Shown here in pieces: positions 1 to 23,200 of a stretch of DNA of 64,000 nt. Position 1 is the first letter of the stretch. Each line of letters starts with the position of its first letter. Below the pieces are notes generated by a model. The model worked only from the letters and a program-made list of their open reading frames with translations, ran no database searches and was not told the DNA's origin. Source of the DNA: an uncultured bacterium (GTDB lineage Bacteria > Hydrothermota > UBA3073 > NMUJ01 > CBEVQO01); NCBI GenBank assembly GCA_965552055.1, contig CBEVQO010000002.1, positions 288,001-352,000 of the forward strand, read 5' to 3'. The position numbers were made by a program, and so were the translations under genes.

Positions 1-1194
1 ATCGTATCCCCCGTAGGCAACAGTTTAAAGGAATTCTGGGATGCACTACTTGCTGGCAAAAGCGGTATCTCCCGCATTACTCGCTTCGATACCACGAATT
101 TGACAGTAAAAATAGCAGCAGAAGTCAAAAATTTCGACCCCGCGAAATATTTCACGCCCAGGGAATTGAGAAGAATGGACAGATTTACCCAATACGCAAT
201 GGTAGCTGCTATTCAGGCAGTCGAAGATAGTGGAATTGAGTTTAAGGAACCTTACAGAGCAGGTGTGATTATAGGCTCGGGAATCGGCGGTATTGAGACA
301 TGGGAAGCAGAACATAAGAAGTTGCTGGAATCACCGAGAAGGGTTTCTCCTCTCTTTATTCCAATGATGATAATGAATACTGCATCTGCTATGGTTGCGA
401 TGCGATGGGGATTAAGGGGACCGAATTTTGGTGTGGTATCTGCCTGTGCTACTTCAAATCATTCCATAGGCGTTGCATATCACATTATAAAACATGGGGA
501 TGCTGATGTCATGCTCGCTGGAGGCACAGAAGCTGCCGTTACTCCGCTTTCTATCGCTGGCTTCGCAAATATGAAAGCACTTTCTACCCGTAATGACGAG
601 CCCGAAAAAGCATCAAGACCTTTTGACAGGGATAGGGATGGCTTTGTGGTAGGCGAAGGAGCAGCTGTTTTTGTACTTGAGGAATATGAGCATGCTAAAA
701 AAAGGGGTGCGAAGATTTATTGTGAATTGGCAGGATATGGTGCAAACTGTGATGCATATCATCTCACCGCACCTGAACCTTCTGGTGAGGTAGCAGCAGA
801 TGTAATGTTAAGAGCCCTAAAAGATGCCGGGGTATCACCCGATGAAGTTGACTATATAAATGCACATGGCACTTCCACCCCCTTAAATGACAAAACAGAA
901 ACTCTGGCTATAAAGAAAGCATTTGGAGAAAGGGCTTATAAAATTCCGATTTCTTCTACGAAATCGATGATAGGTCATCTACTTGGTGCTGCAGGTGCGT
1001 GTGAAGCAGTTGCTACTGTGATGACAATCAAAGAGAATGTAATTCATCCAACGATAAACCTGGAAAATCCTGACCCCGAATGCGACCTCGATTATGTACC
1101 TAAAGAGCCCCGAGAAAAAGAAGTGAAAGTAGCGATTTCAAACTCGTTTGGCTTCGGCGGACACAACGCCTGCCTCGTATTCAGAAAAATTTAA
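1..1194 (+). CDS. fabF: Beta-ketoacyl-ACP synthase II (5'-truncated by window edge)
   Basis: Frame open from base 1 ([30 protein letters not shown]...). Motifs SACATS (catalytic Cys), [20 protein letters not shown] and [10 protein letters not shown]. Confidence 0.97.
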
Positions 1195-1975: not shown

Positions 1976-2512
1976 TTAAACTTTTTTGAGCTTGCCATCT
2001 ATCTCAAAATTGTTACCACCTAAATGATGTACTATTTTTACCTTATCAATATCCCAGTATTCTCCAAATACTCCTTCTTTTGCTTCTGCATGCACTATTT
2101 CTCCCACAAAAATCGTATATCTGCCGATATCAAAAGTATATTTCAATTTGCATTCTATAAAAGCAACGCATTCTCTTATCCATGGACATTTAACATTTTT
2201 GCCTTTCATCGGAGTTAATCTTGCCGCTTTAAATTTATCAACTTCACTACCAGATTTTGTACCGCATACCCATATTGCATTTAATAAACTTTCATCAGGA
2301 ATATTTATGGTAAATTCTTTTTCTTTCATTATTAAATCATGTGAATATCTTTCTTTTCTAACGCTTATTGCTACAAGTGGCGGACTACTGCATACAGGCG
2401 TCACCCATGCAATAGAAATTATATTGGGATAAGAAGGTCCATTAACGGTAACAAGAACACAGGGACCATTATTCACCAGTCTATAAGCATATTTCAAATC
2501 CACTTCTCTCAT
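1976..2512 (-). CDS. Flavin reductase-like FMN-binding protein
   Basis: YRLVNNGPCVLVT, PPLVAISV, EFTINIP, CGTKSG..VDKF and IFVGEIV are typical of the family. Start placed at ATG 2512 after a GGGGGTGAG SD. Confidence 0.9.
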   Translation of the reverse strand: MREVDLKYAYRLVNNGPCVLVTVNGPSYPNIISIAWVTPVCSSPPLVAISVRKERYSHDLIMKEKEFTINIPDESLLNAIWVCGTKSGSEVDKFKAARLTPMKGKNVKCPWIRECVAFIECKLKYTFDIGRYTIFVGEIVHAEAKEGVFGEYWDIDKVKIVHHLGGNNFEIDGKLKKV

Positions 2513-2520
2513 CTCACCCC

Positions 2521-3480
2521 CTATTTCATTATTTGCCATAGCCTTTTGAAATTCACATCTTTTATCCTTCGAATTAAACTCAATTTATCTTTCATACCCA
2601 TTGCAAGAATATACAGCAAAAATTTCTTTAAAATCGCGTTTTCAATACCTATGTTTTCCAGAATTAATCTTTCCCATATTATCATCCCTTCCGTTATTCC
2701 ATCACAATCTGTAAAATCTTTCAGCAAGTAAAAAGTATATTTCACGGGTTTTGCCGAAAAATATCTTTTTGTAAGTTTTTTGAATAAATTAAAATCAATT
2801 TTTACCTTCTGCATAAACATTATAATATCAAGTAGCCATTTCAAGCTTGCAAAACCTTCCTTCAACACATGGTTACATAAGTAAATCAGCTCCTGTTCCG
2901 GTTGCATAATGAAAAAATCTCCTTCTTTCTTTACATTTTCCCATATTTCATCGGGTTCTATCCTAAAAAACAATCTCTGAAAAGGACTTTTCTGGTTCAC
3001 AATATGCCAGTGTACTTCTATCATCACTTTTCCAAGAAAAGATTCATGGTTTCCTTCATTACTATAAAGTTTTCTGTATCCCATCTCTTTTAAAATTTTA
3101 ACAATTTCAGGATAGTCTTCTTTCTTTACAAGAACATCTACATCATTTAACTCTCTGGCACCAATATCTTTATAAACCGTCCTTAACATCCTTATACCTT
3201 TTAATGGAATGATTGGAATACCCTGCGCTCTTTGTATCAACCTATCAAATTCTGATAAAAACAAAACATTCCTGTAAACGGTTTGATTATAAAGTTTATG
3301 TATTTCTGCCAGTAAACTTTTATTTAATTTCTTGTCTATTTTATTTTCTGTAATTTTCGAATAGAGAAAAGGTAAAACATCAATCAAAAAGGGATTTTTT
3401 AACGCTTTTTCAATAAATTTCTCGAGTTCATGTAAATTTACTTCTGCAGGTCTTAAAAGAATTCCAAGGTATTTTCTCAT
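2521..3480 (-). CDS. Uncharacterised nucleotidyltransferase (NTP_transf_5-like)
   Basis: IPIIPLKG...VY...ARELNDVDVLV, IEVHW and LKWLLDI match the family pattern LKG-x-Y-x-R-x-DxD ... ExH ... LxWxxD. Confidence 0.85.
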   Translation of the reverse strand: MRKYLGILLRPAEVNLHELEKFIEKALKNPFLIDVLPFLYSKITENKIDKKLNKSLLAEIHKLYNQTVYRNVLFLSEFDRLIQRAQGIPIIPLKGIRMLRTVYKDIGARELNDVDVLVKKEDYPEIVKILKEMGYRKLYSNEGNHESFLGKVMIEVHWHIVNQKSPFQRLFFRIEPDEIWENVKKEGDFFIMQPEQELIYLCNHVLKEGFASLKWLLDIIMFMQKVKIDFNLFKKLTKRYFSAKPVKYTFYLLKDFTDCDGITEGMIIWERLILENIGIENAILKKFLLYILAMGMKDKLSLIRRIKDVNFKRLWQIMK

Positions 3481-4949
3481 TTTACTTTAACGATTTTTCT
3501 TACTTTAAATATTTTTCCGGTTTCAAGTGTTACAAAATACACGCCTGCTGGTAATTTTTCTGTTTTCCATTTTATAGTATAATAACCGGGTTCATATTGT
3601 TTTTTAGCGATAACTTCAATACATCTACCTGCTACATCGAAAATTCTTATTTTAACAAAAGATTTTTTTGGTATTGCGAATCTTATCATCATATAATTCT
3701 TAAATGGATTTGGGTAAACGGGATATAATGCGAACACTTTTGGTAGCAAATCCGGTTTATAAGTATCTGACTTTCCCTGCAAAGCATATATTTCTTTTTC
3801 GGTTATAAGAAAAACTTTTGCATCACACATTATGGGAGAAACTTTAACTTTTCCTTTTAGCTCTTCTTCATAAATTTTCTTTCCGGTTTCAATATCAAAT
3901 GCGAAGAATTTTCCTTGACTTGAGATACAGTAAATGATATTCCCCGAAATGATAGGAGAAACTGGCTTTTTTCCTGTGAATTCACCGAGTTTTTGGCACC
4001 ATTTTACTTTACCAGAAAACATGTTGATGCAATAAAGATATTCCCCTTTATATGCTGCTATTAAGACAACTTCATTGTTTCCGACTGCGATATTTGACAC
4101 TTTTAACTTTTCTGCCTTTAATGCACGCTTCAAAGGCGGTCCTACAAGGTATTCTGCCTGTGGCAACGGGATAAACTCTGTGGCTATTTCAATCTTCTCT
4201 CTTTGCCTCATTTTAATATCTTTAAGTAAATTATATTTCCATGCCAATCTACCATTATCTTTATTTACAGCGTAAAGATAGGGGTCAAAGCCACCGGGTG
4301 CGAAGAATACAAAATAACTCGCAGATGAAGGATTAAGAGACCTGAAAGCATTTTTAGTTGAAAATTCCCAGAGTTTTTCACCTGTTTCAATGGATATCGC
4401 ATAAATTTTACCATCATTTGAAGAAATATAAATCTTTTTATTTCTCACAACAGGCATTGAATGAATGAATTGCAAAGTGCTTATTTTCTTCTTCTCTCCT
4501 TTCTCTTCGATTATAAATTCTTTATAGGGTCTTCCTTTTGGATACAATAACTTTTCGCCATAGGGCAGTATTCCTCCCCTTGTTATACCAAGATTTTTCT
4601 TACAGATTGAAAATCTGCCTGTTTTTACATCGACCTTATAATAAATTCCCTTATCTGTTAAAAAATGACATTTTCCCTTTTTAATCGTTATAAACTCCGA
4701 AGGTCTTCCTTCCAGTTTTACCTTCCATCTAATTTTACCGTTCCATGTATTTATCGCAATCATTTTGCCTTCTTTCGTCCCGAACACAAGAATTCCCTCA
4801 TAGTAAACAGGATGTGTCACAATATCTGTCTCTGCTTTATATGTCCACAAATGTTTAAAAGGTGGTTTGATTCTTTCTCCTATATTTCTCGTAGCACTCA
4901 AATCGTATCCGGGATATAACCAATTTGTGAATAATATAAATAACAGCAT
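3477..4949 (-). CDS. PQQ-like (BamB-type) beta-propeller protein with C-terminal T9SS type A/FlgD-Ig-like sorting domain
   Basis: Hydrophobic N-terminus; repeated A(I/F)xxxTGxxxW blades; C-terminus YPNPF...IRFAIP...IRIFDVAGR...LPAGVYFVTL...KIVKVK. Confidence 0.85.
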   Translation of the reverse strand: MLLFILFTNWLYPGYDLSATRNIGERIKPPFKHLWTYKAETDIVTHPVYYEGILVFGTKEGKMIAINTWNGKIRWKVKLEGRPSEFITIKKGKCHFLTDKGIYYKVDVKTGRFSICKKNLGITRGGILPYGEKLLYPKGRPYKEFIIEEKGEKKKISTLQFIHSMPVVRNKKIYISSNDGKIYAISIETGEKLWEFSTKNAFRSLNPSSASYFVFFAPGGFDPYLYAVNKDNGRLAWKYNLLKDIKMRQREKIEIATEFIPLPQAEYLVGPPLKRALKAEKLKVSNIAVGNNEVVLIAAYKGEYLYCINMFSGKVKWCQKLGEFTGKKPVSPIISGNIIYCISSQGKFFAFDIETGKKIYEEELKGKVKVSPIMCDAKVFLITEKEIYALQGKSDTYKPDLLPKVFALYPVYPNPFKNYMMIRFAIPKKSFVKIRIFDVAGRCIEVIAKKQYEPGYYTIKWKTEKLPAGVYFVTLETGKIFKVRKIVKVK

Positions 4950-4957
4950 TTCTCCTC

Positions 4958-5086
4958 CTAAGATTTATCTACCCCCAGATTACACTGCAAACCTGTTATA
5001 TCGCCTGCTGTCTGGCATTTATTACATTGTGCAACTGCATAAATTTTCTCTGATTTTACCTCCGGCTCTTTAAATTCTTTTTTCAT
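4958..5086 (-). CDS. Small Cys-rich peptide 2 (42 aa), RiPP-precursor-like: MKKEFKEPEVKSEKIYAVAQCNKCQTAGDITGLQCNLGVDKS
   Basis: Translated by hand (below the ORF-track cutoff). AAGGAGGGG SD directly upstream of ATG 5086; stop TAG overlaps the SD of the next gene; clearly paralogous to peptide 1. Confidence 0.85.
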   Translation of the reverse strand: MKKEFKEPEVKSEKIYAVAQCNKCQTAGDITGLQCNLGVDKS

Positions 5087-5097
5087 ATCCCCTCCTT

Positions 5098-5232
5098 TTA
5101 AGATTCCTTTGGCAAAATATTACAATCCAATCCCCCTATCTCTGCTATTGATACACATTTGCCACATGCCTGAGCTATTACATAGATTTTCTCACTTTTA
5201 CATTCGGGTTCATGCCATTCTTTCTTTTCCAT
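5098..5232 (-). CDS. Small Cys-rich peptide 1 (44 aa), RiPP-precursor-like: MEKKEWHEPECKSEKIYVIAQACGKCVSIAEIGGLDCNILPKES
   Basis: Translated by hand. AGGAGGT SD upstream of ATG 5232; overlaps the 3' end of the giant gene; paralog of peptide 2. Confidence 0.85.
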   Translation of the reverse strand: MEKKEWHEPECKSEKIYVIAQACGKCVSIAEIGGLDCNILPKES

Positions 5233-8200
5233 TTTGCACCTCCTATTCCTATACGGAATATCTTACCGGATGTTGTAAATGTAATTACTCCTTGAGCGAC
5301 ATTTAGCATTGGAGTAGATTCTATTTTTTGTCCCGGGTCAAATTTCCATAATATTTTTCCTGTTTTTTCTGATACCGCTATTAATCCCTTTTCTGTACCG
5401 ATATAAATCTTTCCGTTGTACACCAGGGGTTTAGTTGTTGGCTTTGCACTAATGTTCAGAGGATATTGTGCCCAGCCCCAGGGATTTGGATTTCCATCAA
5501 TATCATAACAATAGATATTACCAAGTGTATCCGCAAAGTATATTTTACCCCACCAGTACCATGGTCCTTTTATAGCCGGAGCATTAAGTACATCCTGCCA
5601 AATTAAATCATAAGGCTGAGCTCTTAAACTATCGAGGCAATAAACATTTTTCTTAATGTTGCCAAAGTAAATCCTATAGTGGCTACCTGCCACTCTTCCA
5701 AATGCCGGTATATTAACGATATCTCCATCTGTTCCGTATTTTGCCTGCTCTACTCCTGTACCCGCACCGATTTTGTAAAGCGTATCGTCACATGAACCAC
5801 CATGCAGGAAACCGAATCCGTATCCCGGCATCGCTCTTATCGCGCCTCCTGTAGAGAAAGACCAGATAACACTGCCATCACCTCTATCAACTGCATAGAA
5901 ATTACCATCCTTTGCTCCAAAGTAAATTACACCACCATATTCAAATACACCGGAGATTATAGAATCACCAATATTCGTCCGCCATATCACATCACCATCT
6001 GTCCTGTTAACTGCATATAAAGTGCCAGCAGATGTGCCAAAGAACAAAGTATCACCTCTCACACAAATCAAATCACTTGCATAACCTCCATATTTTTTCT
6101 TCCATAAGAGATTACCCAAACTGTCGACAGCATACAATGTGCCGGATTTTGTAGAATAATAACTGGCACCATCAAATGCATGACCTATTCCTGAAGTTAC
6201 ATCTTTCCTGAATATCCTGATACCTGGATGTTGCCACTTTAGATCGATGTAAGCGGAATCTTTCCAAACTATTTGTGCACCATTAAGTTCTTCTTCATAC
6301 AATTCTCCTGAATGCTCTCCCATATAATTTTCACAGAAGATATAAATACCTGCACCATTCGCAGAAATATTTTTGTAACATGTAGTATCAAATAATAGAC
6401 CGCTGTAAGTATCGGAGTAAGCAGATGTTTTTATCACCCGCAAAGCTTTTGAAAGAGAGGACATATTCATAAACCATACATTTTCAAGAGTATCTATTTG
6501 TGATGTTGTATCGAGAATGAGACCCGATATTCCATCGCATAATAATCTGCTGATACTAACATTTCCTTTCAATCTTACTTCTGGATATTTTACACCCTGC
6601 TGTGTGGATGTTATTGAAGGCATTAAACCTTTTGCTATGAATTTGCCTTTTGCTATAAGATTTGCACCTACTTTTACTTCTGCCAGTGAGTCAATTATAA
6701 AAGCCGAATTTTGATCGATGGTAAGAACATTCTGCACTTTTAGAACAGATTTTCCTGAAAGGACGAAATCTGCATCCTGGAATTTGAGGTTATAGAAGTA
6801 ATTATTTTGTCCCTGTATTATTTTTACACTATCTTTTGCGATGACTATTTCTCCAGCTGAAGGCGTGAATGTTCCACCTGTATCTATCCAGTCACCCATT
6901 ACAATGTGAGTATAACTGCCAGGGTCAAATTCTCCCTTTAGAATCTTGAAATCACCGTAAATTGTTAGAGGACCTGTTGCAGTAACAGATGCTACCTGCT
7001 TTGTAGAATCTTTTTCTTCTTTCTTTGTAGAATAAGAATTTTCGATTATAAGATTATAAAACTTACTTTGCGATATTTGTTGCGGTTGATCACCGCAGAA
7101 AATGCAAGTCGAAGAATCAGGGATAAATTCACCGTTATTTATCCAGTCTCCTTTGATTCTTATAGTATCATCATTTGCCTTAAATACTCTTCCTGCATTT
7201 ATTTGTAAATCGTTAAGTATCACCAAATTATTCGTCAGTTTTATTGTATCTGCGTCTATTGTGAGGTTATAGAATGTATCTTCGGGTACATCCATTTTTG
7301 CCTGCAATATAACTGTGCCTGTTTGTGGCATAAACTTACCCTGATTAATCCATGAAGATGTCTTGAAAATAGCTCCTTCTCCTCCTTTGAATACTGCGCC
7401 TGTCCCAATATGGAAGCTATCTGTAACAGTGACCGTAACTCCTGCTGCAAGCGAAAGCGTATCGCCAGATATAACCAAGGACTTAAATGTTTCCGAATTC
7501 GTTATACAATTAGTTCCATCGAAAGTTACGACTCCTGCTGTCTGCTGGAATGTTCCGTTGTCAATCCATGTACCTGCGCAGAATATTGTAGATTTTGAAA
7601 TAAGATTTATTCCACCGCCTTTTTCTATCTTCACATTTCCATTGCAATCAAGATACATTCCGGGGACCGTCAAATTTACATTCGCTCCATTTTTCACAAA
7701 TATTGCAGCACATTGTGCAGTAGTGTTCACGGTTGGATCGAAAGGTGCATCCTGAATTATAACCTGATCTGTTGCAGTAGGCACTGTGCCATCCTGCCAG
7801 TTAGAAGGATTATCCCATCTATCATCAACTGTGCCTGTCCATACATCTGCAAGTATCCATTCTATTCTTGCGTACTGCGTAGTTGTATCATAAGCATCTC
7901 CTGCCTTATCTCCGGAATATGCTACCATGGTTACAATCGCAGAATCAGGGGAAGTGCATTTTAAATGGAAATTATACTGACATGAAGCATCATAAGAGTG
8001 CCCACTAAATGTAGCCGTATATCCTGCATTTCTGTAAATCTGTAAGAATGTTCCACCTGACTCGATATTTGTGAAATTAATGCCATCGAGTGCAGCAATC
8101 TGAGCATCTTCCCATATCCTCAATCCTCTCTTACAAACTCTATTTACATTCAATGCAGTTACATCTATCTCTCCTCTTACTTCAAATCCAAAGTAAGACA

Positions 8201-11200
8201 AATTATTTATACTCGTTATAGTTGGTGTTACTCCATTTGCACTGAATTTTCCGCCATTTTCGATAAACAATGTATCTGCTACTTTAAGTGTACAACTGCC
8301 ACTAAGCTGTAAGAGACCTCCGGAATTCACAATTATGTAAGAGTTAGCACTGACAACAGAGCTATTGAGTGTTAAAATACTATCAACAATTATCGAATCT
8401 CTAATAGTGTGTCTTCTATTCACGAAATCAAATTTCCCTTTCTTAATCCACAATTTTCCATCTATTTGAGTGCCTGTCTTTGTAACAACCTGTGTTCCTG
8501 AATCTATTATCACATCATAGAAATTATTTGTCGATTTCTGATATATTTCCTGATTTTCTCCGCAAAGTATAATTTCACCTGCTGATGGCGTAAATGTACC
8601 GAGAGTATCATTCCAGTTACCCTTCACATAGTGCGTGTAAGTACCTGGCACAAATTCTCCTGCTTCTATTACAAAATCTCCATATATCCTTAGTGAACTC
8701 TGTGCTGTCACTGTTCCGGTTGATTTCACAATCACACTATAGAAATTATTCTGGGTCAATTGTGTAATATTTTGGGATGTTCCTGCAAATATTATCTTTC
8801 CTCCCGTTGGTCTAAATGTGCATCCTGTTTCTATCCAATCACCTTTTACCGTATGAGTAAATGTATCTGGGACAAATATACCCGATGCAAGCTCTATATC
8901 TCCATAAATCCGTAATTTAGATAGTGCTTTTAAAGTATCTGTTTTTTCAATCTTTATATCGTAGAAATTATTCCCATTGCCCAATTTGACTGTAGATTTG
9001 CTTCCCAAGAAGATAACCTTACCCGATGTAGGTGCAAATGTACCTGATACTGTATTCCAATCACCGTAAATCCTGTGAGTATAACTGCCAGGTATAAACT
9101 CTCCTGATAAAAGTGTTAAATCTCCTTTAATTACTAAACTATCAAGTGCGGTTACAGATGCAGTTGGCGCCATACTCAAATTATAAAGATAATTTCCTGT
9201 GCCTAATTTTATCTGCTGCGCACCTCCTGCAAGATAAACAGTACCATCATCTGCTTTGAATTCGCCTCCTGAAGCATCAAAATCACCCCGTACTTCAAGG
9301 ACATTATCGGACGGTATAAAGACTCCCGATTTTACAGTAAAATCATTTTTTACAAAGATATCTGTCTTCTGCCATATTGTATCGCCATCGATCTCAAGAT
9401 TTATGAAATAGTTACTTGCTTTTTGCCATATTTCACCTTTTCCTGTTAAGACTATTTTTCCGCCAACCGGATTGAATGTCCCTCCCGTATCCACCCAATC
9501 ACCACCAATATAATGCGTAAAACTACCTGCAATAAATTTACCTTTATTTATTACAAAATCACCATGCACATGTAAAGAATCAAAAGCTTCCACACTTGTA
9601 AGGCAATTTATCTCGACATTATTAAAGTAGTTTGTCTGACTTGAGGTGATTTTCTGATAATTTCCTGTAAACTTTATTTTTCCTCCTGTTTGATGAAATG
9701 TTCCCAATACATCACTCCAATCGCCTTTAACTTCATGGGTAAAGGTATCTGGATTGAATGTACCTGTTATCGTTATATCCCCATAGATCTTCAGCGGTGT
9801 TTTTGCAGTTACAGTACCTGCTATTTTAATATTTGCAAAGTTATTATCTTGTGCCTGCCATATTTCTGAATTACCGGTAAATCTTATTTCACCACTTGTA
9901 GCTGTAAATGTTCCTCCTGTATCTATCCAGTTTCCTTCAACATAATGGATATAACTTGCTGGTGAAAATTCGCCTTTCAGCAACACAAAATCGCCTTTTA
10001 TATTAATCGGTGACTGACATAGCACTTTTCCCGAATTCTTATTAATCGTTAAATTATAGAAGTAACTTTGCGGTGTTAGATTTATTACCTGCTGGTAATC
10101 TCCACAGAATATTATTTCACCTGAATCTGCATAGAGTGTTCCATTTACTATTAAATCTCCTTTTAAATACAGTTTAAATGTATCACAATGTAAATAAGCG
10201 CTATCGTCTATTCTAAGGGACATGCAATATGCATTCGTATCGAGGTATGGGAATCTAACAGCAGTATCTGGTATTACGACATCTTCTGTATCCGTAGGCA
10301 CTCCTGGTGGCGACCAGTTATTGGGATTGCTCCATAAACTATCAACATCTCCCTGCCATACTCTCTGCGCAATCCAGTAAATGTGAGCTTTATTAACCTC
10401 TTCATCATAACTCTCACCTGCTTTTGCACCCGAATAATTTACCATATAAATCACTGTAGAATCTCCACCACCATCTGCATAAACATTCACACTGCAAGAT
10501 GCATCAAAATAACAACCTGTGAAGTTTTGAATAAATAGACCTTTCCTGTAAATTTGCAGATGTTTCCCTTTATTACCCACTTTCTCAAAACTCACATTAT
10601 TCAAACTAATTATTTCTGCAAGTGTGTCAATATAGAATCCATCACTATCCGCATATGAGAATTTCAATCTTTCACAATTTAATTTTCCTGAAAATCTAAA
10701 TGAAAAGCGATTCAATGTATCGAGTGCAGTTATTTGCGGTGTCAAACCTGTAAACTCACAATAAGAACCTTCCTGCGCCTTAAATGTTTCTCCTACTTTC
10801 AAAATAGATGCTCCCTGCATTATTAAAGTATCATTAATCACAATATATTTTCCTCTCAATTCTCCGCCTGTCATCTTTAAATTGCCGGAAATTATCACAC
10901 TATCTTCAACTGTATGTACTCCTGTTTGTATATCAAGTTCTCCTGTGAGTAACTTTAATTTTGAATTTATTTTAAGACCGGTTAATGGAGTAACTTTTTG
11001 AGAGTTTAATGTCAGGTTGTAGAAATTGTTTTGCGAAGATGTGATAATTTCTATGGTATCACCTTCAAATTTTATCTCACCTGCTGTTGGATTAAATTTA
11101 CCATTTTGGTCGTTCCAATTACCTTCGATTATATGAGTAAATGCCCCGGGTTCAAATCTTCCACCGCTTATTGTGATATCGCCCTTCACTCTAATAGGCG

Positions 11201-14200
11201 TTTCTGCTATTATCGTATCTGTAAGGTTTGGAGTTATATCAAGATTTGCAAAGTAATTATTTTCACCCTGATAAATTTTTGATGTTCTTCCTGTTAATAC
11301 AATTTTACCATCTGTAGGCTGGAAAACCCCTCCTGTATCAATCCAGTTACCTTCAACAGTATGAGTATAACTACCTGCATAAAATGTTCCTTTCTTCAGT
11401 ATGAAGTCTCCTTTTAATGTAAGAGCAGAAGATGCTGTTAACTGAGATAAATTCTTTTCTATTATAATTGTATTGAAGTAATTACCATTTGCTAATTCTA
11501 CCTGCGCAGAAGCATCCCCTCTAAATACAAATTTGCCGGAGTCAGCCGTAAAGACCCCTTGAGATGTAAAGTTTCCATAAACGATATGGGTATAACTCCC
11601 GGGATTTAAACTTCCAGACTCTATCGTAAGATTACCTTCACAGATGATTGATGATTTTAAGTAAGTATTGGATGTTTTAATTGTGAAATTCTGGAATCTA
11701 TTTTTAACAGTATCCTGTAGCACATTTGATACACTTCCTGTAAACCAGACATCAGCATTTGCTGGGAATACAACCACTCCTCCTGTGTCAATCCAGTCTG
11801 CTCCTACTTTAATAAGCGAAGGTGCATCAAATACCCCGGAATTCAAAACAAAATCTCCTTTAAGGGTTATATTTGTTTTTGCACTCAAAGTATCCTGAAC
11901 TTTTATTTCAATATTTGCAAAGTAATTATTTGCGCCTTGCCATATTTCTCCTTCTTTACCGTCGAACAATATCTTTCCTTCTTCTGCTGTAAATACCCCT
12001 CCCGTATCAATCCAGTCACCCCGCACCGTATGGGTGTAAGAACCTGCTTCAAATATACCCGAAGATAACATGAAATCACCGTAAATTTTCAATGCACTCT
12101 GTGCAAATACGGTATCACTTGCTCTAATTTCAAGATTAGCAAAGTTATTATTTGAACCTTGAATTATCTTAAATTTATTTCCATCCAGTATTATCTTCCC
12201 AGAATCTTGTGTAAATATAACTGCTGTATCAACCCAATCACCTGCTATCTCGTGCACATAACCCCACGGCTCTATCACTCCTGATAACATGTAAAGCGCA
12301 CCATTAACATCTATAGGCGAATCAAAGTAGACACTATCTGCATTTATTTCCATCTCGTAGAAGTAATTATCTGCATCCGTCAAAATGTGTTGCACTGCTC
12401 CATTGAACACAATTTTGCCTGCAGAAGGTCTAAATATACCTCCAGTATCCACCCAGTCACCTTTTACATAATGAGTATAAGATGAAGGCTCAAATCCTCC
12501 TTTATAAATCATAAAATCACCTTCTATTGTCAATCCATCTTGTGCAATTAATTCCCCGCCTGTGCTATTTATTATTATCTTATCAAATGCGCTTAAACCA
12601 CCCTTTACATATTGGTCGCTTCCACCATTAAATACAACATCAGAACCTCCGTGAATAAAATTACCGTCATTTATCCAGTCACCTCCAACATAAATCGTAT
12701 ACCCTTTTCCTTTCAATGTTTGCTTGATGTGTAAATCATTCATGCATATCAGCTCAGCATTCAGACTGTCTATTGCATTTATTACAAGGTTATAAAATGT
12801 ATCCTGTGGTAATGTCATATCTGCAAGAAACTCAACCGTGCTTTGCTCATAATGGAATTTACCGGAATTATTCCAGCTATAAACCTGTATCAAGGTATTT
12901 GTTCCTCCATGGAAATCTGCATTTGTGCCTATTATGAAATTATTTGTAATTTTCAAAGTATCGCCATAATTTACACTTACATTTGAATTATCCGCAAACT
13001 TCAAATTATAGAATGTGCATTTGCCTGAAATTACCCCTGTTGACTCTATTACAACCCATCCACCTGTATGGTTGAATACGCCATCATTTGTAAAGTCATT
13101 CCATACAAACAATGTTCCATCTGATAAATCAAATTGACCTTTAATTGTAAAATCACCCTGCACATGTAATATTTTATCCGAATTCATTGTAAGCTTTGCT
13201 CCACTCTTTATCAACACTCCTGCACATGTATCTGTGATATTTAAAATTGGATAATTATTATTCGCATTTGCTGGTATTATTACGAGTTCTGTATCTACAG
13301 GTGGTCTTCCTAATGACCAGTTTTTGGCATTGTGACTCGCAGGCAGACCAGCAGCTACTGCATCCCACCAGCTGCTATTTGTTCCTCCAACCCACACATC
13401 TGCACTCGTCCATTCAATATTGGCACCATTAACTTCATGATCATAGTTTTCACCCGCTTTACTTCCGCTTGCTCCACTCATTATTATATCAACATTATTA
13501 CCACCACCGTCAGCATAAACATTTGTATCACAGTATTGATCATAAGAATGCAAACTAAATGTAGCGTTAAAATCAGCATTTCTATAAATTTGCATATAAA
13601 CTCTATGTCCCGTGCCTCTTTGATTTGTAAACTTTACTTCATCTAACCTCGTAATCTGTGCCTGATTATAAATACATAAGCCTCCTGTATCTATATAAGA
13701 TATGGTTAAACCATCTATTTCGAGTTCTCCATAGACATTGAAATCAAAGGGTTTTGTTGTATCTTTTGCAGTAATTTCCGGAGAACCCGAAGTAAATATC
13801 TTTCCTCCATTTGCAATGTAAAGTTGTGTTCCCAGCTTCAATGCCGGGCTTCCTATTAATTTAAGCACCCCTCCTGATTGCACATTAAGCCCTGTTCCTA
13901 CTTCAAGTACAGATGTACCAAGATCAAGCGTTCCATAAACATTTACACCGGAAGCTACTTTATGTGTTAACCCATCTGAAAGATATAGTTCACCTGCGTT
14001 TATCAGCAATGCTCCATTTATATTAAGACCATCTTCCGCTGTTGCTACTCCTGTAACATCTATTGTTAAATTATAGAAGTTATTTGTCGCAGATGTATAA
14101 ATGTGCGGATTTTCACCATTAAGAATTATTGTCCCACCTGTAGGTTTAAATACTCCTCCTTTATCATACCAATCACCGCCTATTTCATGAGTAAAGTTAC

Positions 14201-17200
14201 CGGGTATAAATGTTCCTGACAATATTGCAAAGTACCCTTCTGTTTTCAGTGCTGTCATAGCCCATACAGTATCCGAAGGGTTTATTTTCACATTGTTGAA
14301 ATGATTACCAATTTTTGCATAAATCTTCTGTTTCGTTCCATCAAATATTATGGTCGAAGTTGTATCTATAAATATTCCTCCGGTATCTGCCCAGTTGCCT
14401 CCAATTCTATGAGTATATGCATTTGGTACAAATTCACCGGATAAAATCACAAAATCGCCATTTATATCCAGTGAATCTGCTGCTATAAGTTTATTTGTAA
14501 CCTCACATATTACATTATTGAAGTAATTACCTGCCTTTGTATTTATCTGCTGTGTAACTCCGTCAAAAATTATTGTTCCTGATATTTGATTAAATATTCC
14601 TCCCTCATCATCCCAATCACCTGCCACCCGATGCGTGAAACTACCAGGGTTAAATGTACCTGTTATTGTAATATCGCCATCAACATTTATAGAAGTATAT
14701 GCCGTTATGTTTCCAGAAATCGTAAGATTATAAAAGTTATTACCTGTACCCTGATAAATACCTTTATTAACACCGGAAAGTATTATCTCGCCTTCCTGTG
14801 CTTTAAACTCTCCGAGAGTATCAATCCAGTTACCATTAACTGTGTGAGTATAATCACCCGGTATGAATTTTCCTTTGATTTCAACATCGCCATTTATTTG
14901 CAGATTACTTTTTGCGATCGCTGTTCCTTCACATACAAAATCGTTGAAAATTTCATCATCTGTATAAATTTGTGATGAATCAATGAAGATAACCTTACCT
15001 GCATCTTGTTTAAAGTATCCGCCTATTGCATAAAAATCACCGCCTATTCTGTGGGTATAAGATTGAGCATAATAAACTCCCTGCAATATTTTAAAATCAC
15101 CCATAATCTTTATAGAATCAAGTGCTGTAACGGTATCATTTGCCTGTATCACTAAATTGTTGAAGTAATCATTTGCACTAACATTTATTTGTTGCTTATT
15201 ACCTGCAAATATCACAGTTCCCGTTAAATCCTGTATTACACCTGTTTCGGAATCCCAGTTGCCCTCTACCTGCAATTCGAAAGTATCGAGTATTAATTGA
15301 CCCGATGTAATTTTGACATCTCCTTTTACAACTACATCTGTTTGTAATGTTAAATTATTATCAACATCTATTTCTATATTATGGAAGTAATTTCCTTCTT
15401 TCTGTTTGATAACTGCATTTTGTCCGTTAAACAATATTTTTCCGGAAGTCGGTCTGAAAGTTCCATTTATTTCATACCATCCACCACCTACTATATGTGT
15501 GTAAACACCTGGTATGAATTCTCCCGATTTCAATGTAATATTGTTCTTTATAATTATTGGACCACCTGCTGTTATGCTTCCTGTTTGCTTATTGATAACA
15601 AGGTTGTAAAATTCTCCTGAATCTCCGAGTGCTATTTGATTTGCAAGTCCTGTAAATTCTATAGTCCCGTCACCTGCATCAAATCTTCCCATATTATGCA
15701 TATTTCCTTTTATAACGAGAGTATAGGAACCTCCGGGTCCTTCTTTAAATCTTGCACCTGTTTCGATGTTTAAGGAAGCAATTGTATCATCCATATCAAG
15801 AACAGGGTAATTTGTAAGTCCTCCTGGTATTACCACATCTTCTGTATCTGCTGGCAGACCAACTGGATCCCAGTTAAACGGATTACTCCACAAAGTATCT
15901 TGCGCCCCTGTCCATACTTTCTTTATCATCCAGATAATTTCTGCACCATTGACTTCCTCATCGTAATCTTCACCTCCCTTGGGACCAGAATAATCTGAGA
16001 AAATTAACCTTACCGAATTACCATAACCATTTGCATAAACATTTGTATCACATGAAGCATCAAAGGAGCAGCCAAGAAATTCTTTCTCAAAATCGGCATT
16101 TCTATGAATTTGTAAATGCCTGCTCGGATTGCCTCCCGGTTGTACACTCTGGAATGATACATTCGAAAGATCAATTATTGTAGCACTTGTATCAATATAC
16201 ATACCATTGACATCGGCTCCTGAAAATACAAGGCGCAAAACTTCGATTTCTCCTCTTACTTTAAAACTATAATAATTTATTCCATCATTCTGAATTTTAG
16301 GCGTCGTACCGAATGCCTCAAATTTGCCGTCAATCAAAGCCGCTTTTCCTAGCGTAAGTACACATTGATTCTCCATATAAAGGACACCTGTTTCTTTTAT
16401 TATCAAAGAATCACTCACTTTTAACTCACTCTGTCCAAGATGTAATGAATCTTCCGCTATTACCTTGCCATCTACGGTATGGGTTAAAGCATCACCAAGA
16501 TAAAATGTTCCTGAAATTATTCTCAAATTACCTTTTACTGTTATATTTGTCTGCGTTTCTATTCTTCCTGTCCCTTCAATTATTAGATTATTAAAATGAT
16601 TTGTTGCACCCTGATTTATAGTGGCATTTTCTCCTATCAATTTCACTGTTCCTGTAAGGTCTGTAAATGTTCCTCCTGCATCCGACCAGTTACCTCCGCA
16701 TATTACAGTATCTTCTATAGAGAATGTACCCTGTTGCAATGTAAAATCACCACCTATTAAAAGTTTAGTCTTCGCAGTAGCAACTCCAGATACATTAATT
16801 GTCAAATTGTTGAATTTATTACCTTCTTTCTGATAAATAACAGGTGATATTCCATCAAGCACCACACCACCTTCTGTTTGCACAAACTCACATAGAGTAT
16901 CGACCCAATCACTCGCAATATAGTGAGTATAAGCACCAGGAAGTATAACACCCGATTTCATCACAAAGTCACCATTTACATCTATCTGTGACTTAAATTC
17001 AACAGTATCTGTGCTGCCTACATCTATCACAAGATTCCATAGCTTGCTACCTGTATTTAATTGTAAATCTTTTGTGCTTCCTTGCAAAATTACTGTCGCT
17101 GCATCAAAGTCAGTATTTCCTCCTGCTTCTATCCAATCACCATCCACCCATAAAGTACATGCTACGGCATCTTTCAAATATCCACTCTGCAAAGTAAAGT

Positions 17201-20200
17201 TATTTACTTTTATATTTGTCTCAAGATTAACTACACTTCCGGTATTTATGGTGAGATTTGCGAAATTGTTATTTGCACCCTGTTTTATGTATATGGTATC
17301 TGCATCATCAAGCACTATCTCACCCTGTGATGGTTTAAATGTACACAATGCATCATCCCAGTTGCCACAAATGTAATGAGTGTAAGCACCCGGAATTATT
17401 ACACCATTTTGCATTATAAATTCAGAGTTTACATCGATAGATGACGCAAATTCAACTGTATCCTGAGCATTTTGTAACGCAATTTTTAGCTTATAGAAAT
17501 TATTCCCTGTTCCTTGCTTTATTTGTTGTTTGCCTGTTCCACATATCACTATCATTCCGGAATCCGGTGTAAACACTCCTCCTGCATCATCCCAATTACC
17601 CTTCACATAATGAGTAAAGTTACCGGGATTAAATTCTCCTTGCCTCAATTTAAAATCTGTAACCGTGATTGATGTCTTCGCATAAAGAACACCTCCTGTC
17701 TTATCAACAATTAATTTATTGAATGTTATTGCATTCCCTTTTATCTCTTGATTTCCTGTGCCATTAAAAATCACTATTCCAGAACCTGCATCAAAACTTC
17801 CATTGTTCATGAAATCACCACCAACATATAATGTACAATTAAGTGCTCTTAATGTCTTTGTTGATAATATCTTCAAATCATTCTTCACCACAAGCTTCGT
17901 ATAAGGTATCTTCGCATTAGCACCTATTGTGAGATTGTAAAATACTTCATTTGGCACTATTGTATCCCTAACGATAACTTCACCTGTTTGGCAATCAAAT
18001 GTTCCACCTGAATTGTTCCAACCTTTTACATCAAATACTGCGTTGTTTCCTCCATAAAATGTAGCTCCTGACAATAAGTTAAAACTATTTGTTACTTTTA
18101 CTGTTTCGCCATCTGCGATACCAACACCTGCTCCTGTGATTTTTATATTTAAAAATGTAGTACTCCATATCTTTGCGTTGGCACCATAAAATTCAACTAA
18201 ACCGCTTCGCTGATCAAATACTCCTCCCATATTTTTCCAGTTGCCTCCTACTCTTATCACACTATTCGAATCTTGCACAATCTTCGCACCGGATTTTAAT
18301 TCAACATCTCCTGATACATTCAAAGTACATACAGTATCTACATATAGCATTGTTGAAGAAAGTAAAAGTATTGATGCACATTCTGCGTGCAAAGTGTCAA
18401 CATGTGGATATACAGACCTTTGAGGTATTAGGACTTTATCGTTGAGTTTAGGAATATCGTCCGGTGGATCCCAGTTATGCGCTTTGCTCCATCTCCAGTG
18501 AGTACCTGCTGGCCAGGGGGCACCCGTACCTCCAACCCACACTTTACCCATTGTCCACAAAACAGCACCTCCATTTGTCTCCTCATCATACGCTTCTCCA
18601 GCTCCACTACCAGCATAATAGAAAACTTTTAACTTTGCTACAGTATCCGTAGTGGATACACCACCATCTATGTGAATATTAACATCACCTGCATAAACGG
18701 TATCATAATAGTGGTCATAAATAGTTTTATCAAAAGTACCACTTCTATAAATTTGCAGAAATCTATCGGTACCTGCTGTGCGCTGTAAACTATCAAATCG
18801 AACACTCGAAAGATCTGTCAATGTTGCTGCTGGATAAATGTATAAACCATTTGAATTTAAGTATCTGAAAATTGCACCTTCAACATCAATTTCACCTTTT
18901 ACTCCAAAGCCATAATATTGTCCTGAATTTCGATGTGTTATCAATGGCTGAGCATTTCCTACGCTTCTCGTTACAAATTTACCTGTTGATGCAACTTCTA
19001 TCCCTTTTACCAGCTGTAACTGTGCTGCTCCTTCCATTTTCATTAAACCTGCAACTATCACAGTATCCGCTGCTATGCCTCCGCCAGAATTTTTCATCAC
19101 CACACCACCTGATTGTCCTATTTCCATTTTGCCCGTTAGTAAACCTTTTGAATTGAGTATTAAAACACCCGATTTTACTTTTGTACTGTCAAGAACCATC
19201 AAATTACTTTGTGCCTTTACTGTATCACTTTCTATCACAAGTAGATACAAAGTATCTGTCCCAATGTCTATATTCTGTACCTCTCCGTTCAAAATAATTT
19301 TACTATTTTTCACAAGAAGCTTTCCATCTGCTGATTTAAAATCACCTTTTATTCTGTGAGTAAAGTTACCTCCATCGAATACACCTTGCTGATAGATCCA
19401 AAACATTCCATGAATATTCAGAGAATCTTGCGCTTTTATAGTATCGGATGTGCTTATTCCAAAGTTATAGAAGTAATTGCCTGTCCCAAGGTAAATATTT
19501 GATTTTCCGGGAAAACCAATCCAACCTGAAGTCGCATGGAAAATACCTCCTCTACTATCCCAATCTCCATAAACTTTCATTACTGTTTGAGGCGGAATAA
19601 ACTCACCTTGTGTTATAACAAAGTTACCTTTCACAATTATTCCTGTGTTTGCTTTCTTCGAATAAGCAGTATTTATCTCAAGATTATAAAAGGCATTCTT
19701 GGTTGTATCCTGATAAATAGAGTCAGCATATCCATCAAGTACTATTTTGCCAGAAGAAGGATTGAATACACCTCCCAAATCCCACCATGTACCGCCTATA
19801 TAGTGAGTATAAGAATCAGGATAAAATACGCCCGAAAGTATCTTAAAGTAACCATCAACATTTAATGAAGATTGAGCTTTTAATGAATCTTCTACTTCTA
19901 CCTTCACATTGTAAAAGTTATTTCCACTACCTGTTTTAACATCTTGTTTTATCCCTGTGAAATGCACGATCCCTGATGTCGGCGTAAATGTACCACCGGT
20001 ATCCACCCAGTCACCTTTTATCTCTATGTAGCTACCGGGTACAAAACTGCCTGATGAAAGAGTAAAGTCACCAAAAATTTTCAAAGGAGTAAGCGCCTGA
20101 CAATTTGAAGATATCTTCAGGTTATAAAAGTTATTCTTTGAAGTGTCTTGATATATTACCTGAATTCCTGTTCCATTAAATACGATTTCTCCAGACGATG

Positions 20201-23200
20201 GTGCAAACTTACCCTGCCTATCATCCCAATTTCCTTCTATGTAATGTGTGTAAGACTGAGGAATAAATTCTCCACCCAAAATTGTAAAATCACCTGTGAT
20301 CTTTAAAGAAGTTTGTGCTACTACACAATTTGTAACATTTATTTCAACATCAGCAAATTGATTATTCGCACCTTGCCATACATTTGAAGAATCACCATCA
20401 AATACAAACTTGCCAGAAGTTAATAATCTTCCTCCAGTATCATCGTAATCACCACCTACTCTATGTGTATAACTTCCGGCATCGTAACATCCTCCTTGTA
20501 TCTCAAAGTTTCCTTTCACAGTAATATCCGAAAGCGCCCATACTGTATCTGACACATTTATAACAAGATTGTTGAAGTAATCTCCTGTTAATAGTGTTAT
20601 CCTTTGTGTATCTCCATCGAAGATAAAAGTACCTGCATCTGCCCTAAACACTCCACTTATATTTTCAAAGTCGCCAGCTATTGTATGAGTAAAAGATTGG
20701 GGGTCAAATTCACCTTCCCTTATTCTTAACTTACCATCTATATCGAGCGAAGAATAGGCAACAACTTTCCCTGCTAGTTTATAAATATCAAGGTCATAAA
20801 TTGAACTGCTATCCGTTATCTTTATAGATTGATTATATTCACCTCTGAAACATAATTTACCTGTCCCGGGAATCAGCTTACCGTTATCTTCAAAATTACC
20901 AAAGATGTAAAGAACATTTGACTTCAATTTTAACTTTGCACCTGGATTTATCTTTACACTAAAAGCATATCCTGCAACATCAAGCACAGGGTCTCTTATA
21001 GTATCTGGTATTACTACATCTGAAGATTCATCTGGTACTCCTGCTGGCTTCCAGTTATTGGGATTACTCCACAAAGAGTCAACCGCTCCTGTCCAGCGTT
21101 TCTGTATGAGCCATTTTATCTCCGCACCATTTGTCTCTTCATCGTAAGCCTCTCCTGCTTTAGGACCGCTATACCCCGACACAAAAATTTTAACATTACC
21201 ACCTGCACCATCAGCATGGATATTTGTATCACATGTAGCATCAAAATATAAACCTATTAAAGTAACATTGTAAGTCCCTTGCCTATAAATATGCAAATGA
21301 GTGCTCGGATTACCACCAGGTTCAACATTCTCAAAAATAACATTGGAAATATTTTGTATAACTGCTGGCGTATCTATTACCATTCCTTCACTATTAGCAT
21401 AACTGAAATAAAGTTTTGTAATGTTTACAGTTCCCCTTATTTTAAATGAATAGTAAGTTGATGGAGATATGGATGTAACTGTAGGCGCTGCTCCCTCCGA
21501 GATAAACGAACCTGTTTCTCTTATAAGTACTCCTTTTGCTAACCTTAAAATAGAACTACCATAAAGATGCAAAACTCCATCACTCACAAGATTGCCTACC
21601 ACCACTAGATCACTACCTGATACATTAAGCTCACCCGATTGACCAATATAGACGCTATCTTTTAAAGTATCGTAGTAACCTGTTGAAAGATCAAATTCTC
21701 CTGAAACAACTTTTAGTAAACTATCCACTATTAATTTGCTGCTCATTAAAGCTGTACCTGTCACATTTATCGTTAACCTATTAAATTTATTACCCGAACC
21801 AAGATTAATTTGAGGAGATGTGCCTGCAAATACTATTTCGCCAGCTGAAGGAGAAAATGCACCCCCTGATACATCGAAATCTCCTTTTATTGTGTCAACA
21901 TAATTTCCAGGGTCGAAGCTTCCACCGTTTATTATCTTAAAATCGCCAAAAATTCTAAGACTCGTATTTGCTACTGCGTTTCCTCCATCAATTGTTAAAG
22001 AATAGAAATTATTTGTAGATGATGTTGTTATCTGAGGATTTGCTCCGGTTAAAATTATTTCTCCTGCTGTCGGTGTAAACTCAACTTGCGTATCATCCCA
22101 ATTCCCACTTATCCTGTGAGTATATGAACCTGGGTCAAATTTCCCACTTTCAAGATAAAGTGCACCATTCACAGTTATATTACTTAATGCTGTGACAGTA
22201 TTTGTGGGTCTTAAGATTAAATCATTAAAATAGTTGCCCGCACCCTGTGTAATTTGCTGGTTAACTCCACAGAAAACAATGCCTCCTTGAGATGCTTTGA
22301 AAATACCGCCCGCATCAGACCAATCTCCTTTTACAGTATCTCTGTAAGGCGAGGGTATAAATGTTGCATTATTTTGAATTGAAAAATCACCATAAATTGC
22401 AATACAACTTTCAGCTTCTACTGTATCTGCAACAATCCATAAGTTATAAAAATGATTTTGCGGTGAAGTGTAAATATATGTATGTGTGTTTCCACCAAGT
22501 TCAACACGCCCTGCATTTGGCTTAAATTCTCCATTTGTAACATCAAAATTACCTTTCACTTTCAATACATATGATTGTGGGTCAAAATAGGCATTTTCCA
22601 ATGTAAAATCACCATCAATAGTGAGATCGGACAACATTCGAATTGTATCACCCGAAAGCACCTCAAAGTCATAAAAACTATTTGTTGATAACTGTGTTAC
22701 TTTAAACAAAGAATTTGTTGTTGAAATACTTATTTTACCTTGACCATGCTGGAAAGTGCCTGCTTCTTCTAACCACTCTGTTCCCGAAAGATTTATTGTA
22801 TTGCCATTTTGATTGTAAGTGCCATTCTTCAAAACGAATTTTCCTTGAACCGTTATTGAAGTAACCTGGATAACAGTACCTGTTGCATTTATCACAAGAT
22901 CATTTAAATAAGATGTAGCACCTGTAACTTGTAAAGTCTCTACGCTACTTCCTGCAAATATCACACAACCTGTTCCACAATCAAAGTTCACTACCTTAAA
23001 ATCGCCTTTTACTGTCAAAGTCTCATCCTCTGCTCGACAGATACCAGTAGAAGTAACTACAAAATCATTTTCACAGGTTATATCTGTCTTCAAAGTACAC
23101 TCACCTGCTATTTCAAGGTTATAATAGGTCTCATCGGGTACGCCCATATCACCGGCAAGGACGACCGTACCCGTGCCATAATTGAATACACCATTATTTT

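Follow-up and report, generated by a model that had tools for sequence, protein, structure and literature searches.

Within the 64,000-nucleotide stretch analyzed here, called the window below and taken from contig CBEVQO010000002.1 of an uncultured bacterium of the Hydrothermota, two short open reading frames (ORF1 and ORF2) lie in tandem on the minus strand. These ORFs probably encode tandem precursors of a widespread and uncharacterised system for the modification of ribosomal peptides, the cassette of which has been broken up in this genome, with enzymes that act in trans. The distribution of the peptide family and of its enzymes was analyzed in the source genome, in related genomes and in large protein and contig collections.

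Both ORFs had been reported in a preliminary description of the window as missed by the gene track and preceded by strong Shine-Dalgarno sequences, and our translations are identical to those given there. An AGGAGG is found 6 nt ahead of the ATG of ORF1 and 4 nt ahead of that of ORF2. The two peptides share 57% identity, most of the differences falling between the cysteines, and no further copy exists in the 2.23-Mb source genome. The leader of ORF1 is KKEWHEPECKSEKIY and A-Q-A precedes the first core Cys; the last Cys occupies the 8th position from the end, and the peptide terminates in Ser. ORF1 overlaps the final 18 codons of a 6191-aa ORF which ends at 5178; a spacer of 11 nt leads from ORF1 to ORF2, and one of 8 nt from ORF2 to the gene after it. 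This spacing suggests that the peptides are co-transcribed with their neighbours, as had been proposed; a promoter and terminator scan, with 17 promoter-like sites against 18.5 expected and no terminator, was uninformative.

In a public metagenome run, ORF2 is covered by a low-depth contig of a related strain which carries 18 differences. Ten of these were listed with their codon effect: nine are synonymous third-position changes and one replaces Leu by Val, so that ORF2 is under purifying selection. Together with the wide family of relatives described below, these synonymous changes place the small ORFs beyond chance, and both are genuine coding genes. Over the stretch compared, the main strain of the same run shows a single indel, one base missing in one contig at window position 5096 in the ORF1-ORF2 spacer, which would alter the distance between the stop codon of ORF1 and the ribosome-binding site of ORF2.

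Relatives of the window peptides were searched for at increasing depth. Among 61 related genomes, one borderline match (E 0.0022) was obtained in a genome of the same class (G018), and corresponds to an ORF of 56 aa in which the leader and the CxKC pattern recur. The other weak matches of this search fell within long ORFs or contained stops, and matches at the level of the phylum in G093 and G095 (E 0.03-0.05) lie inside 305-aa ORFs and were taken as chance. A profile of the three peptides, run against 1.84 billion representative proteins, gave 23 matches at E<=1e-3, of which 21 are peptides of 42-79 aa that share one pattern; the pattern of the whole family is KKxYxKPx[IVM]x[ST]EKx[FY]ETxALA-CGKC-x-C-x6-Ser, the Ser being C-terminal. 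The remaining two were off-target (P0005, a 371-aa repeat protein, and P0011, a protein of 1654 aa with 7 matched stretches). A 25-sequence profile against 5.8 billion proteins retrieved 1099 clusters at 90% identity; none of them carries a Pfam domain, and every given name is "hypothetical protein". In contigs from one genome per species, the pattern was matched 590 times, and with an alignment of a 7-sequence subset 557 of these matches proved to be relatives (with the 3-sequence profile, the related-loci search had given 100 pattern matches and no confirmation). Seventy-five loci were kept, labelled Elusimicrobia, Acidobacteriota, Armatimonadota, Verrucomicrobia and Binatus.

The features of the family were counted in 206 distinct sequences aligned on Cys-x-Lys, with positions numbered from the first core Cys. 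The leader carries Tyr at -18 (196/204) and Pro at -15 (197/204), and A-L-A stands just before the core (A at -3 in 198/204, L at -2 in 196/205, A at -1 in 195/205). Cys-x-Lys itself, the anchor of the alignment, is present in 205 of the 206 sequences, and 189 have a Cys at the 8th position counted from the end. The chain terminates in Ser in 203 sequences, in Tyr in 2 and in Thr in 1, and measures 21-24 residues from the first core Cys onwards. The [YWF]xxP leader motif, on which the description of the window peptides as resembling precursors of ribosomally synthesised and post-translationally modified peptides (RiPP) had been founded, was found in all 135 family members examined. Neither window peptide has lost [WF]xxP, CxK, the terminal Ser or the Cys at the 8th position from the end, and both also carry EK[IV][FY], with the Ser 21-24 residues past the first core Cys. 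An acidobacterial form (L069-L101) has L, M, H or I in place of the second Cys of CGKC and carries a Cys in the leader instead (KPxC).

No Pfam or NCBIfam family was found by scanning either window peptide or 23 members of the family; matches to NapG, SkfA and E7 (E 0.02-0.2), each limited to one or two members, were dismissed. In the ESM Atlas the peptides matched unnamed small-peptide clusters only (0.89), lasso leader families at 0.76-0.78 being at most a lead. By their sequences, the window peptides are divergent members of a large peptide family for which Pfam and NCBIfam have no model. No description of the family or of its cassette was found in the literature, subscription journals and supplements lying outside the coverage, and the terms "HPr kinase" and radical SAM did not co-occur in the literature searched.

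The neighbourhood of the family was then tallied over all 75 loci and over the 50 of them that are flanked by 6 kb or more on either side (full-flank loci). The counts are lower bounds, as ORF calling hides some short overlapping genes. A radical SAM enzyme with a SPASM domain (rSAM/SPASM) is present in 48 of the 75 loci (36 of the 50 full-flank loci), a 296-aa family resembling ScmC, with an HPr-kinase-like P-loop, in 41 (29), PqqD in 37 (26), an S24/S26 peptidase in 36 (26) and an NTP_transf_5 nucleotidyltransferase in 17 (15). The recurrence of NTP_transf_5 had been anticipated, and concerns almost exclusively Acidobacteriota. None of the five enzymes is found in 9 full-flank loci; 4 of these are among the 5 full-flank loci of Armatimonadota. 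As read from these neighbourhoods, the full cassette consists of the HprK-like (ScmC-like) protein, PqqD, rSAM/SPASM, the precursor and an S24/S26 peptidase of SipW/archaeal type, often with NTP_transf_5.

The gene order differs between lineages. In G018 a 916-aa protein of the type IX secretion system (T9SS) is followed by the 296-aa HprK-like protein, PqqD, rSAM/SPASM, the peptide and an S24/S26 peptidase, which matches archaeal/SipW-type signal peptidase I above the cut-off. In two genomes of the same phylum, G147 and G148, the rSAM gene is divergent beside the peptide, and a protein of about 2000 aa with an S8 subtilase domain comes next; a conserved Cys-rich protein of 82-102 aa is encoded just past the rSAM gene in both (L025 8403-8711 and L026 503-751, minus strand). 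The order in Acidobacteriota is NTP_transf_5, ScmC-like protein, PqqD, rSAM, peptide, a protein of about 760 aa with DNRLRE and a PQQ_2 propeller, a 162-aa protein and the S26 peptidase; ahead of this cassette there is often a gene for a sensor histidine kinase of about 1100 aa. In Elusimicrobia pilin-like genes precede the ScmC-like protein, PqqD, peptide, S26 peptidase, rSAM, an Rrf2 regulator and a protein of about 2000 aa with fn3 domains. The domains PF04055 and PF13186 were scored on the rSAM orthologues of G018, Elusimicrobia and Acidobacteria.

As had been noted, the window holds no PqqD, radical SAM enzyme, cyclase or leader peptidase: Pfam and NCBIfam scans of it found no maturase. 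The proteins of G018 were used as tblastn queries against the source genome, and each of the enzymes missing from the window was located outside it, on contigs C6 and C7 (Table 1). Against 49 cassette rSAMs the C6 enzyme scores a median of 189 bits, and the next SPASM paralogue 98.6. This enzyme was matched by BLAST only, the domains having been scored on its orthologues, and CNLHCKHC, of the radical SAM form CxxxCxxC, is visible in its ORF. The adjoining C6 protein keeps GRSMSP, HR and GDN, which we take to be the boxes of an S26 peptidase. The kinase-like/PqqD pair of C7 lies between a GT4/AAA_22 group and, directly after it, grpE-dnaK-dnaJ. Within C7:45464-48853, which ends with this pair, the preceding genes encode a glycosyltransferase (GT4), an ATPase (AAA_22) and a protein of 243 aa without a family assignment. 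A homologue of the 243-aa protein occurs in one of the 75 loci (L032), where two genes upstream of the kinase-like one is its position.

The genome has one NTP_transf_5 protein above the cut-off, and this is the sole cassette enzyme that still adjoins the precursors. All five cassette enzymes are thus present once each and intact, over contigs C2, C6 and C7, and the source genome, as these matches show, holds one orthologue of every cassette enzyme. Since the precursors and NTP_transf_5 are on C2 and the other enzymes on C6 and C7, the enzymes would act in trans. Action in trans was part of the initial proposal and is retained; the term "orphan" used there is abandoned, the peptides belonging to a large conserved family whose enzymes are encoded in the same genome.

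Table 1. Coordinates of the precursor genes, of their neighbours in the window and of the cassette enzymes elsewhere in the source genome
Feature	Position	Strand	Remarks
Precursor peptide 1 (ORF1)	window 5098..5232	minus	44 aa; core CGKC..C; motifs and family-profile match
Precursor peptide 2 (ORF2)	window 4958..5086	minus	42 aa; core CNKC..C, C-terminal Ser; paralogue of ORF1
NTP_transf_5 (PF14907) nucleotidyltransferase	window 2521..3480	minus	E 5.3e-44
490-aa PQQ_2/BamB-type beta-propeller with T9SS C-terminal sorting domain	window 3477..4949	minus	domain scan
6191-aa giant protein	window 5178..23753	minus	last ~300 residues PQQ_2-type propeller; 3' end overlaps ORF1
Flavin reductase (PF01613)	window 1976..2539	minus	overlaps NTP_transf_5 gene by 19 nt
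rSAM/SPASM enzyme	C6:50613-51617		tblastn with G018 rSAM, 39.6% identity, E 2e-77
S26-like peptidase	C6:50275-50709		overlaps end of C6 rSAM gene
Kinase-like (HprK-like) protein	C7:47998-48588		adjoins PqqD gene
PqqD	C7:48554-48853		only PqqD of the genome

Another explanation would be that the peptides are unmodified Cys mini-proteins, for instance metal binders, or decaying remnants which the scattered enzymes no longer process. They do contain three Cys including a CxxC, no maturase is in the window, they are the most divergent members of the family and ORF2 is without A-x-A. This explanation nevertheless looks very improbable, as purifying selection acts on ORF2, the [WF]xxP, the CxK, the Cys at the 8th position from the end and the C-terminal Ser have been retained in both ORFs, the five enzyme genes are intact, and the search for homologues with the conserved leader and Cys pattern finds PqqD/rSAM genes beside the family in most loci.

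For a modification system, a pathway of four steps can be proposed. PqqD would bind the leader through [YWF]xxPx[IVM]..EKI[FY]E. The rSAM/SPASM enzyme would then crosslink the core through the invariant Cys-x-Lys, through the Cys at the 8th position from the end, or through both; a thioether, as in sactipeptides and ranthipeptides, is our likeliest guess. The S26-type peptidase would cut after A-L-A, ahead of the first core Cys, A-x-A being the classical site of signal peptidase I, and a product of 21-24 residues would be released. Lastly the HprK-like protein would phosphorylate the C-terminal Ser and NTP_transf_5 would decorate the phosphate. The chemistry of crosslinking, cleavage and Ser phosphorylation and decoration is inferred by analogy. 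For the last step the model comes from lasso precursors: two reports describe HPr-kinase homologues which phosphorylate the C-terminal Ser and, for pseudomycoidin, a nucleotidyltransferase by which the phosphate then receives one or two hexoses (PMC8498205, PMC7533575).

Binding of the leader was examined by co-folding of peptide 1 with PqqD, taken as the RiPP recognition element (RRE) in the peptide-RRE co-fold that the preliminary description had suggested. The score was 0.57, against 0.00 for the best of 3 controls. In the benchmark, the counts of which hold only roughly here because our own alignments were used, the mark was reached by 116 of 157 solved complexes and by 2 of 215 mismatched pairs; with a score of 0.60 or under, only 18 of the 157 solved complexes reached it, and so did both passing mismatches. 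At least 72% of contacts are common to the runs, and the partner has a predicted local distance difference test score (pLDDT) of at least 54. Solved leader-PqqD complexes exist, and the pass may reflect likeness to them. The co-fold thus lends weak support to a predicted binding of the leader by PqqD.

The kinase-like family has no Pfam match. In NCBIfam, two homologues weakly matched ScmC as well as the HprK-related kinases A and B; every score was far below its cut-off, and ScmC was the best match (E 2.9e-11 and 3.1e-8). Across 24 kinase-like sequences, that of the source genome included, an R, an H, the G and K of Walker A, D-E and P-F-x-G are invariant. The AlphaFold2 model has a pLDDT of 94.5, and its best Foldseek matches are HPr kinase/phosphorylase (1knx, E 1.4e-5) and ATP-dependent phosphoenolpyruvate carboxykinase.

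Several observations weigh against the interpretation of the ORFs as precursors of such a system. Some concern the enzymes. The template modelling (TM) scores of these structural matches are only 0.34-0.55, the kinase-like profile, when run against PDB sequences, returned generic P-loops only, and the copy of the source genome (196 aa) is without the N-terminal part of about 90 residues that most homologues possess. Apart from the G018 peptidase, the NCBIfam matches of the cassette enzymes are far below curated cut-offs, so that enzyme activity cannot be transferred by orthology. NTP_transf_5, confined almost entirely to acidobacterial cassettes, is missing from 33 of the 48 rSAM-bearing loci, so that decoration of the Ser would not be universal; the lasso nucleotidyltransferases are presumably PF14907 proteins. 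Others concern the peptides: those of the window are the most divergent of the family, the first relative found for them scored only E 0.0022, and ORF2 has V-A-Q, not A-x-A, before the core Cys. In the 9 enzyme-free loci among the 50, the link between peptide and enzymes would rest on genome-wide co-occurrence, and modification, cleavage and expression of family members are predictions from sequence only.

The neighbours of the precursors in the window agree with the annotations proposed earlier: NTP_transf_5 and a flavin reductase are encoded there, the 490-aa protein combines a PQQ_2-type propeller and a T9SS tail, and the giant protein ends in a further PQQ_2 propeller. Membership of the flavin reductase, which had been placed in the co-transcribed set, is not supported: it has no homologue in any of the 75 related loci. 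The 490-aa propeller is an associated neighbour whose membership of the system is uncertain; it resembles the propeller protein of about 760 aa of Acidobacteriota at the domain level only. The 6191-aa protein is taken as genomic context. Its first 3095 residues (window 14469-23753) matched no Pfam family at E<=0.001, and appear repetitive by eye, with recurring GDW..GG.F and FYNL motifs. The T9SS sorting domain is absent from this protein, which has a C-terminal propeller, and present in the 490-aa propeller protein. The two ORFs share a reading frame and the peptide genes use the other two frames; it is conceivable that an ancestral single gene was split by the peptide pair, but two ORFs have a 1-in-3 chance of sharing a frame anyway.

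Elsewhere in the window, two overlapping small genes are found on the plus strand at 1237-1560 and 1550-1975. The 107-aa product of the first has no Pfam or NCBIfam family; the 141-aa product of the second weakly matches a clan AA aspartic protease (TIGR03698) with an E of 0.0012, short of the cut-off. A gene for FabF (beta-ketoacyl-ACP synthase II) occupies window 1-1194 and is also found a few kb from the peptide in G148 (L026 12500-13738). The presence of FabF near both peptide loci may reflect a synteny that has otherwise been lost.

The genome has six PQQ_2 genes, of which two flank the peptides, one on each side, and the preliminary description had suggested that the products serve as cofactors or ligands of the propellers. 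The corresponding explanation is that the mature peptide is no antibiotic, and acts as a conserved extracytoplasmic ligand, cofactor or tag for the adjacent secreted beta-propeller or giant surface proteins. Besides the propellers on both sides of the window peptides, it draws on the conservation of the whole peptide, core included, across phyla with a core length fixed at 21-24, antimicrobial RiPP cores being usually variable. It also draws on the company of the precursor in other genomes: in 21 loci, of which 19 belong to Acidobacteriota and one each to Binatus and Verrucomicrobia, it is followed by the DNRLRE and PQQ_2-propeller protein, and in 12 loci the 162-aa protein lies downstream, these genes sitting in several loci between precursor and peptidase; a giant secreted protein comes after the cassette in 19 Elusimicrobial loci (fn3) and in G147/G148 (S8). 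These large neighbours, however, are not homologous across phyla, profile searches having given one PQQ-repeat match of 25 residues, and their folds differ (fn3, S8 subtilase, beta-helix, propeller). The lineages concerned encode many large surface proteins and the neighbour counts are without a background control. PQQ_2, moreover, names a fold and is no evidence for a quinone cofactor, and binding of the peptide is hypothetical. Taken together, we regard a ligand, cofactor or tag as rather unlikely.

The peptides could alternatively be ordinary antimicrobial or signalling RiPPs, the surface-protein neighbours being coincidental. PqqD, rSAM/SPASM and a leader peptidase together form, in general knowledge, the architecture of sactipeptide and ranthipeptide bacteriocins, and the window paralogues vary mainly between their cysteines. 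Against this, the 25 largest neighbour clusters, of which only some are annotated, contain no recurrent transporter or immunity gene, and conservation of the core across phyla would be unusual for bacteriocins; we hold this explanation to be unlikely.

If the modification system is combined with a site of action, the product would be a crosslinked non-antibiotic peptide of 21-24 residues, with its Ser phosphorylated and decorated, acting outside the cell on propeller or giant surface proteins. This combined scheme is improbable. If true, it would bring in a Ser tailoring chemistry for which lasso peptides are the only example known so far, and would explain why the precursors have stayed with propellers and nucleotidyltransferase while the other enzymes moved away.

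The family is carried mostly by uncultured bacteria and has neither a name nor a database model; the window extends it, in a divergent form, to a further phylum. Because the peptides are conserved nearly letter for letter across phyla and are served by five dedicated enzymes, a basic cellular or cell-surface role is likely, and another bacteriocin less likely. The partners that have stayed with the precursor, i.e. the nucleotidyltransferase and the secreted propellers, suggest a possible site of action for the product. A cassette can evidently be scattered over three loci, so that genome mining based on clusters would miss it. The invariant C-terminal Ser and the HprK-like protein give a concrete prediction, which can be tested by mass spectrometry.

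Compared with known systems, the cassette resembles first SynChlorMet (SCM; TIGR04248-TIGR04251, ScmC-ScmF), a bioinformatically defined rSAM peptide-maturation cassette, whose composition beyond these four models is taken here from general knowledge. In both, a small peptide is accompanied by an HprK-like protein, a member of the PqqD family and rSAM/SPASM. The present cassette differs from SCM by one rSAM instead of two, by another precursor family, and by the addition of the S26-type peptidase and NTP_transf_5. Its scores fall far short of the SCM cut-offs (ScmC 33-43 bits against 125, ScmD 24-42 against 100, ScmE/F about 71-100 against 400), and also of those of HPr-rel-A (TIGR04352, TIGR04353), with HprK_rel_A at 28-29 bits against 200 and PqqD_rel_X at 20-27.5 against 35. 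The AlbA, StsB, PqqE, MftC, WgkB and GeoRSP matches of the enzymes are all far below curated cut-offs as well, PqqE (TIGR02109) of PQQ biosynthesis reaching 87-96 bits against 381. Membership of SynChlorMet, GeoRSP, HPr-rel-A, PQQ or mycofactocin systems was rejected on these scores.

The tailoring set, i.e. HPr-kinase homologue, uncharacterised nucleotidyltransferase and PqqD with a precursor ending in Ser, is that of the phosphorylated and phosphoglycosylated lasso peptides paeninodin and pseudomycoidin. Unlike lasso systems, the core enzyme here is rSAM/SPASM. A lasso system was rejected, no pair of Asn-synthase-like cyclase and B2 peptidase being near any part of the cassette. The lone Transglut_core3 match of the source genome (PF13471) is at C2:162 kb and the Asn-synthase matches (PF00733) are at C2:18 kb, C3:158 and 173 kb and C1:446 kb, adjacent neither to each other nor to the window, C6:50 kb or C7:48 kb. 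Neither enzyme is among the annotated cassette neighbours of the related loci.

There is also a likeness in general plan with sactipeptides/ranthipeptides, PqqA and MftA, where an RRE likewise guides rSAM/SPASM onto a short Cys-containing peptide. The PqqA precursor carries a Glu/Tyr pair, and no PqqA model matched the peptides in the Pfam and NCBIfam scans. Downstream genes of the PQQ or mycofactocin pathways were not seen beside the cassette, although no search aimed at them was made. As in PqqA and MftA, the whole peptide is conserved and the C-terminal residue is fixed, and in the conservation and constant length of its core the family appears more like the precursors of cofactors than like most antimicrobial RiPPs.

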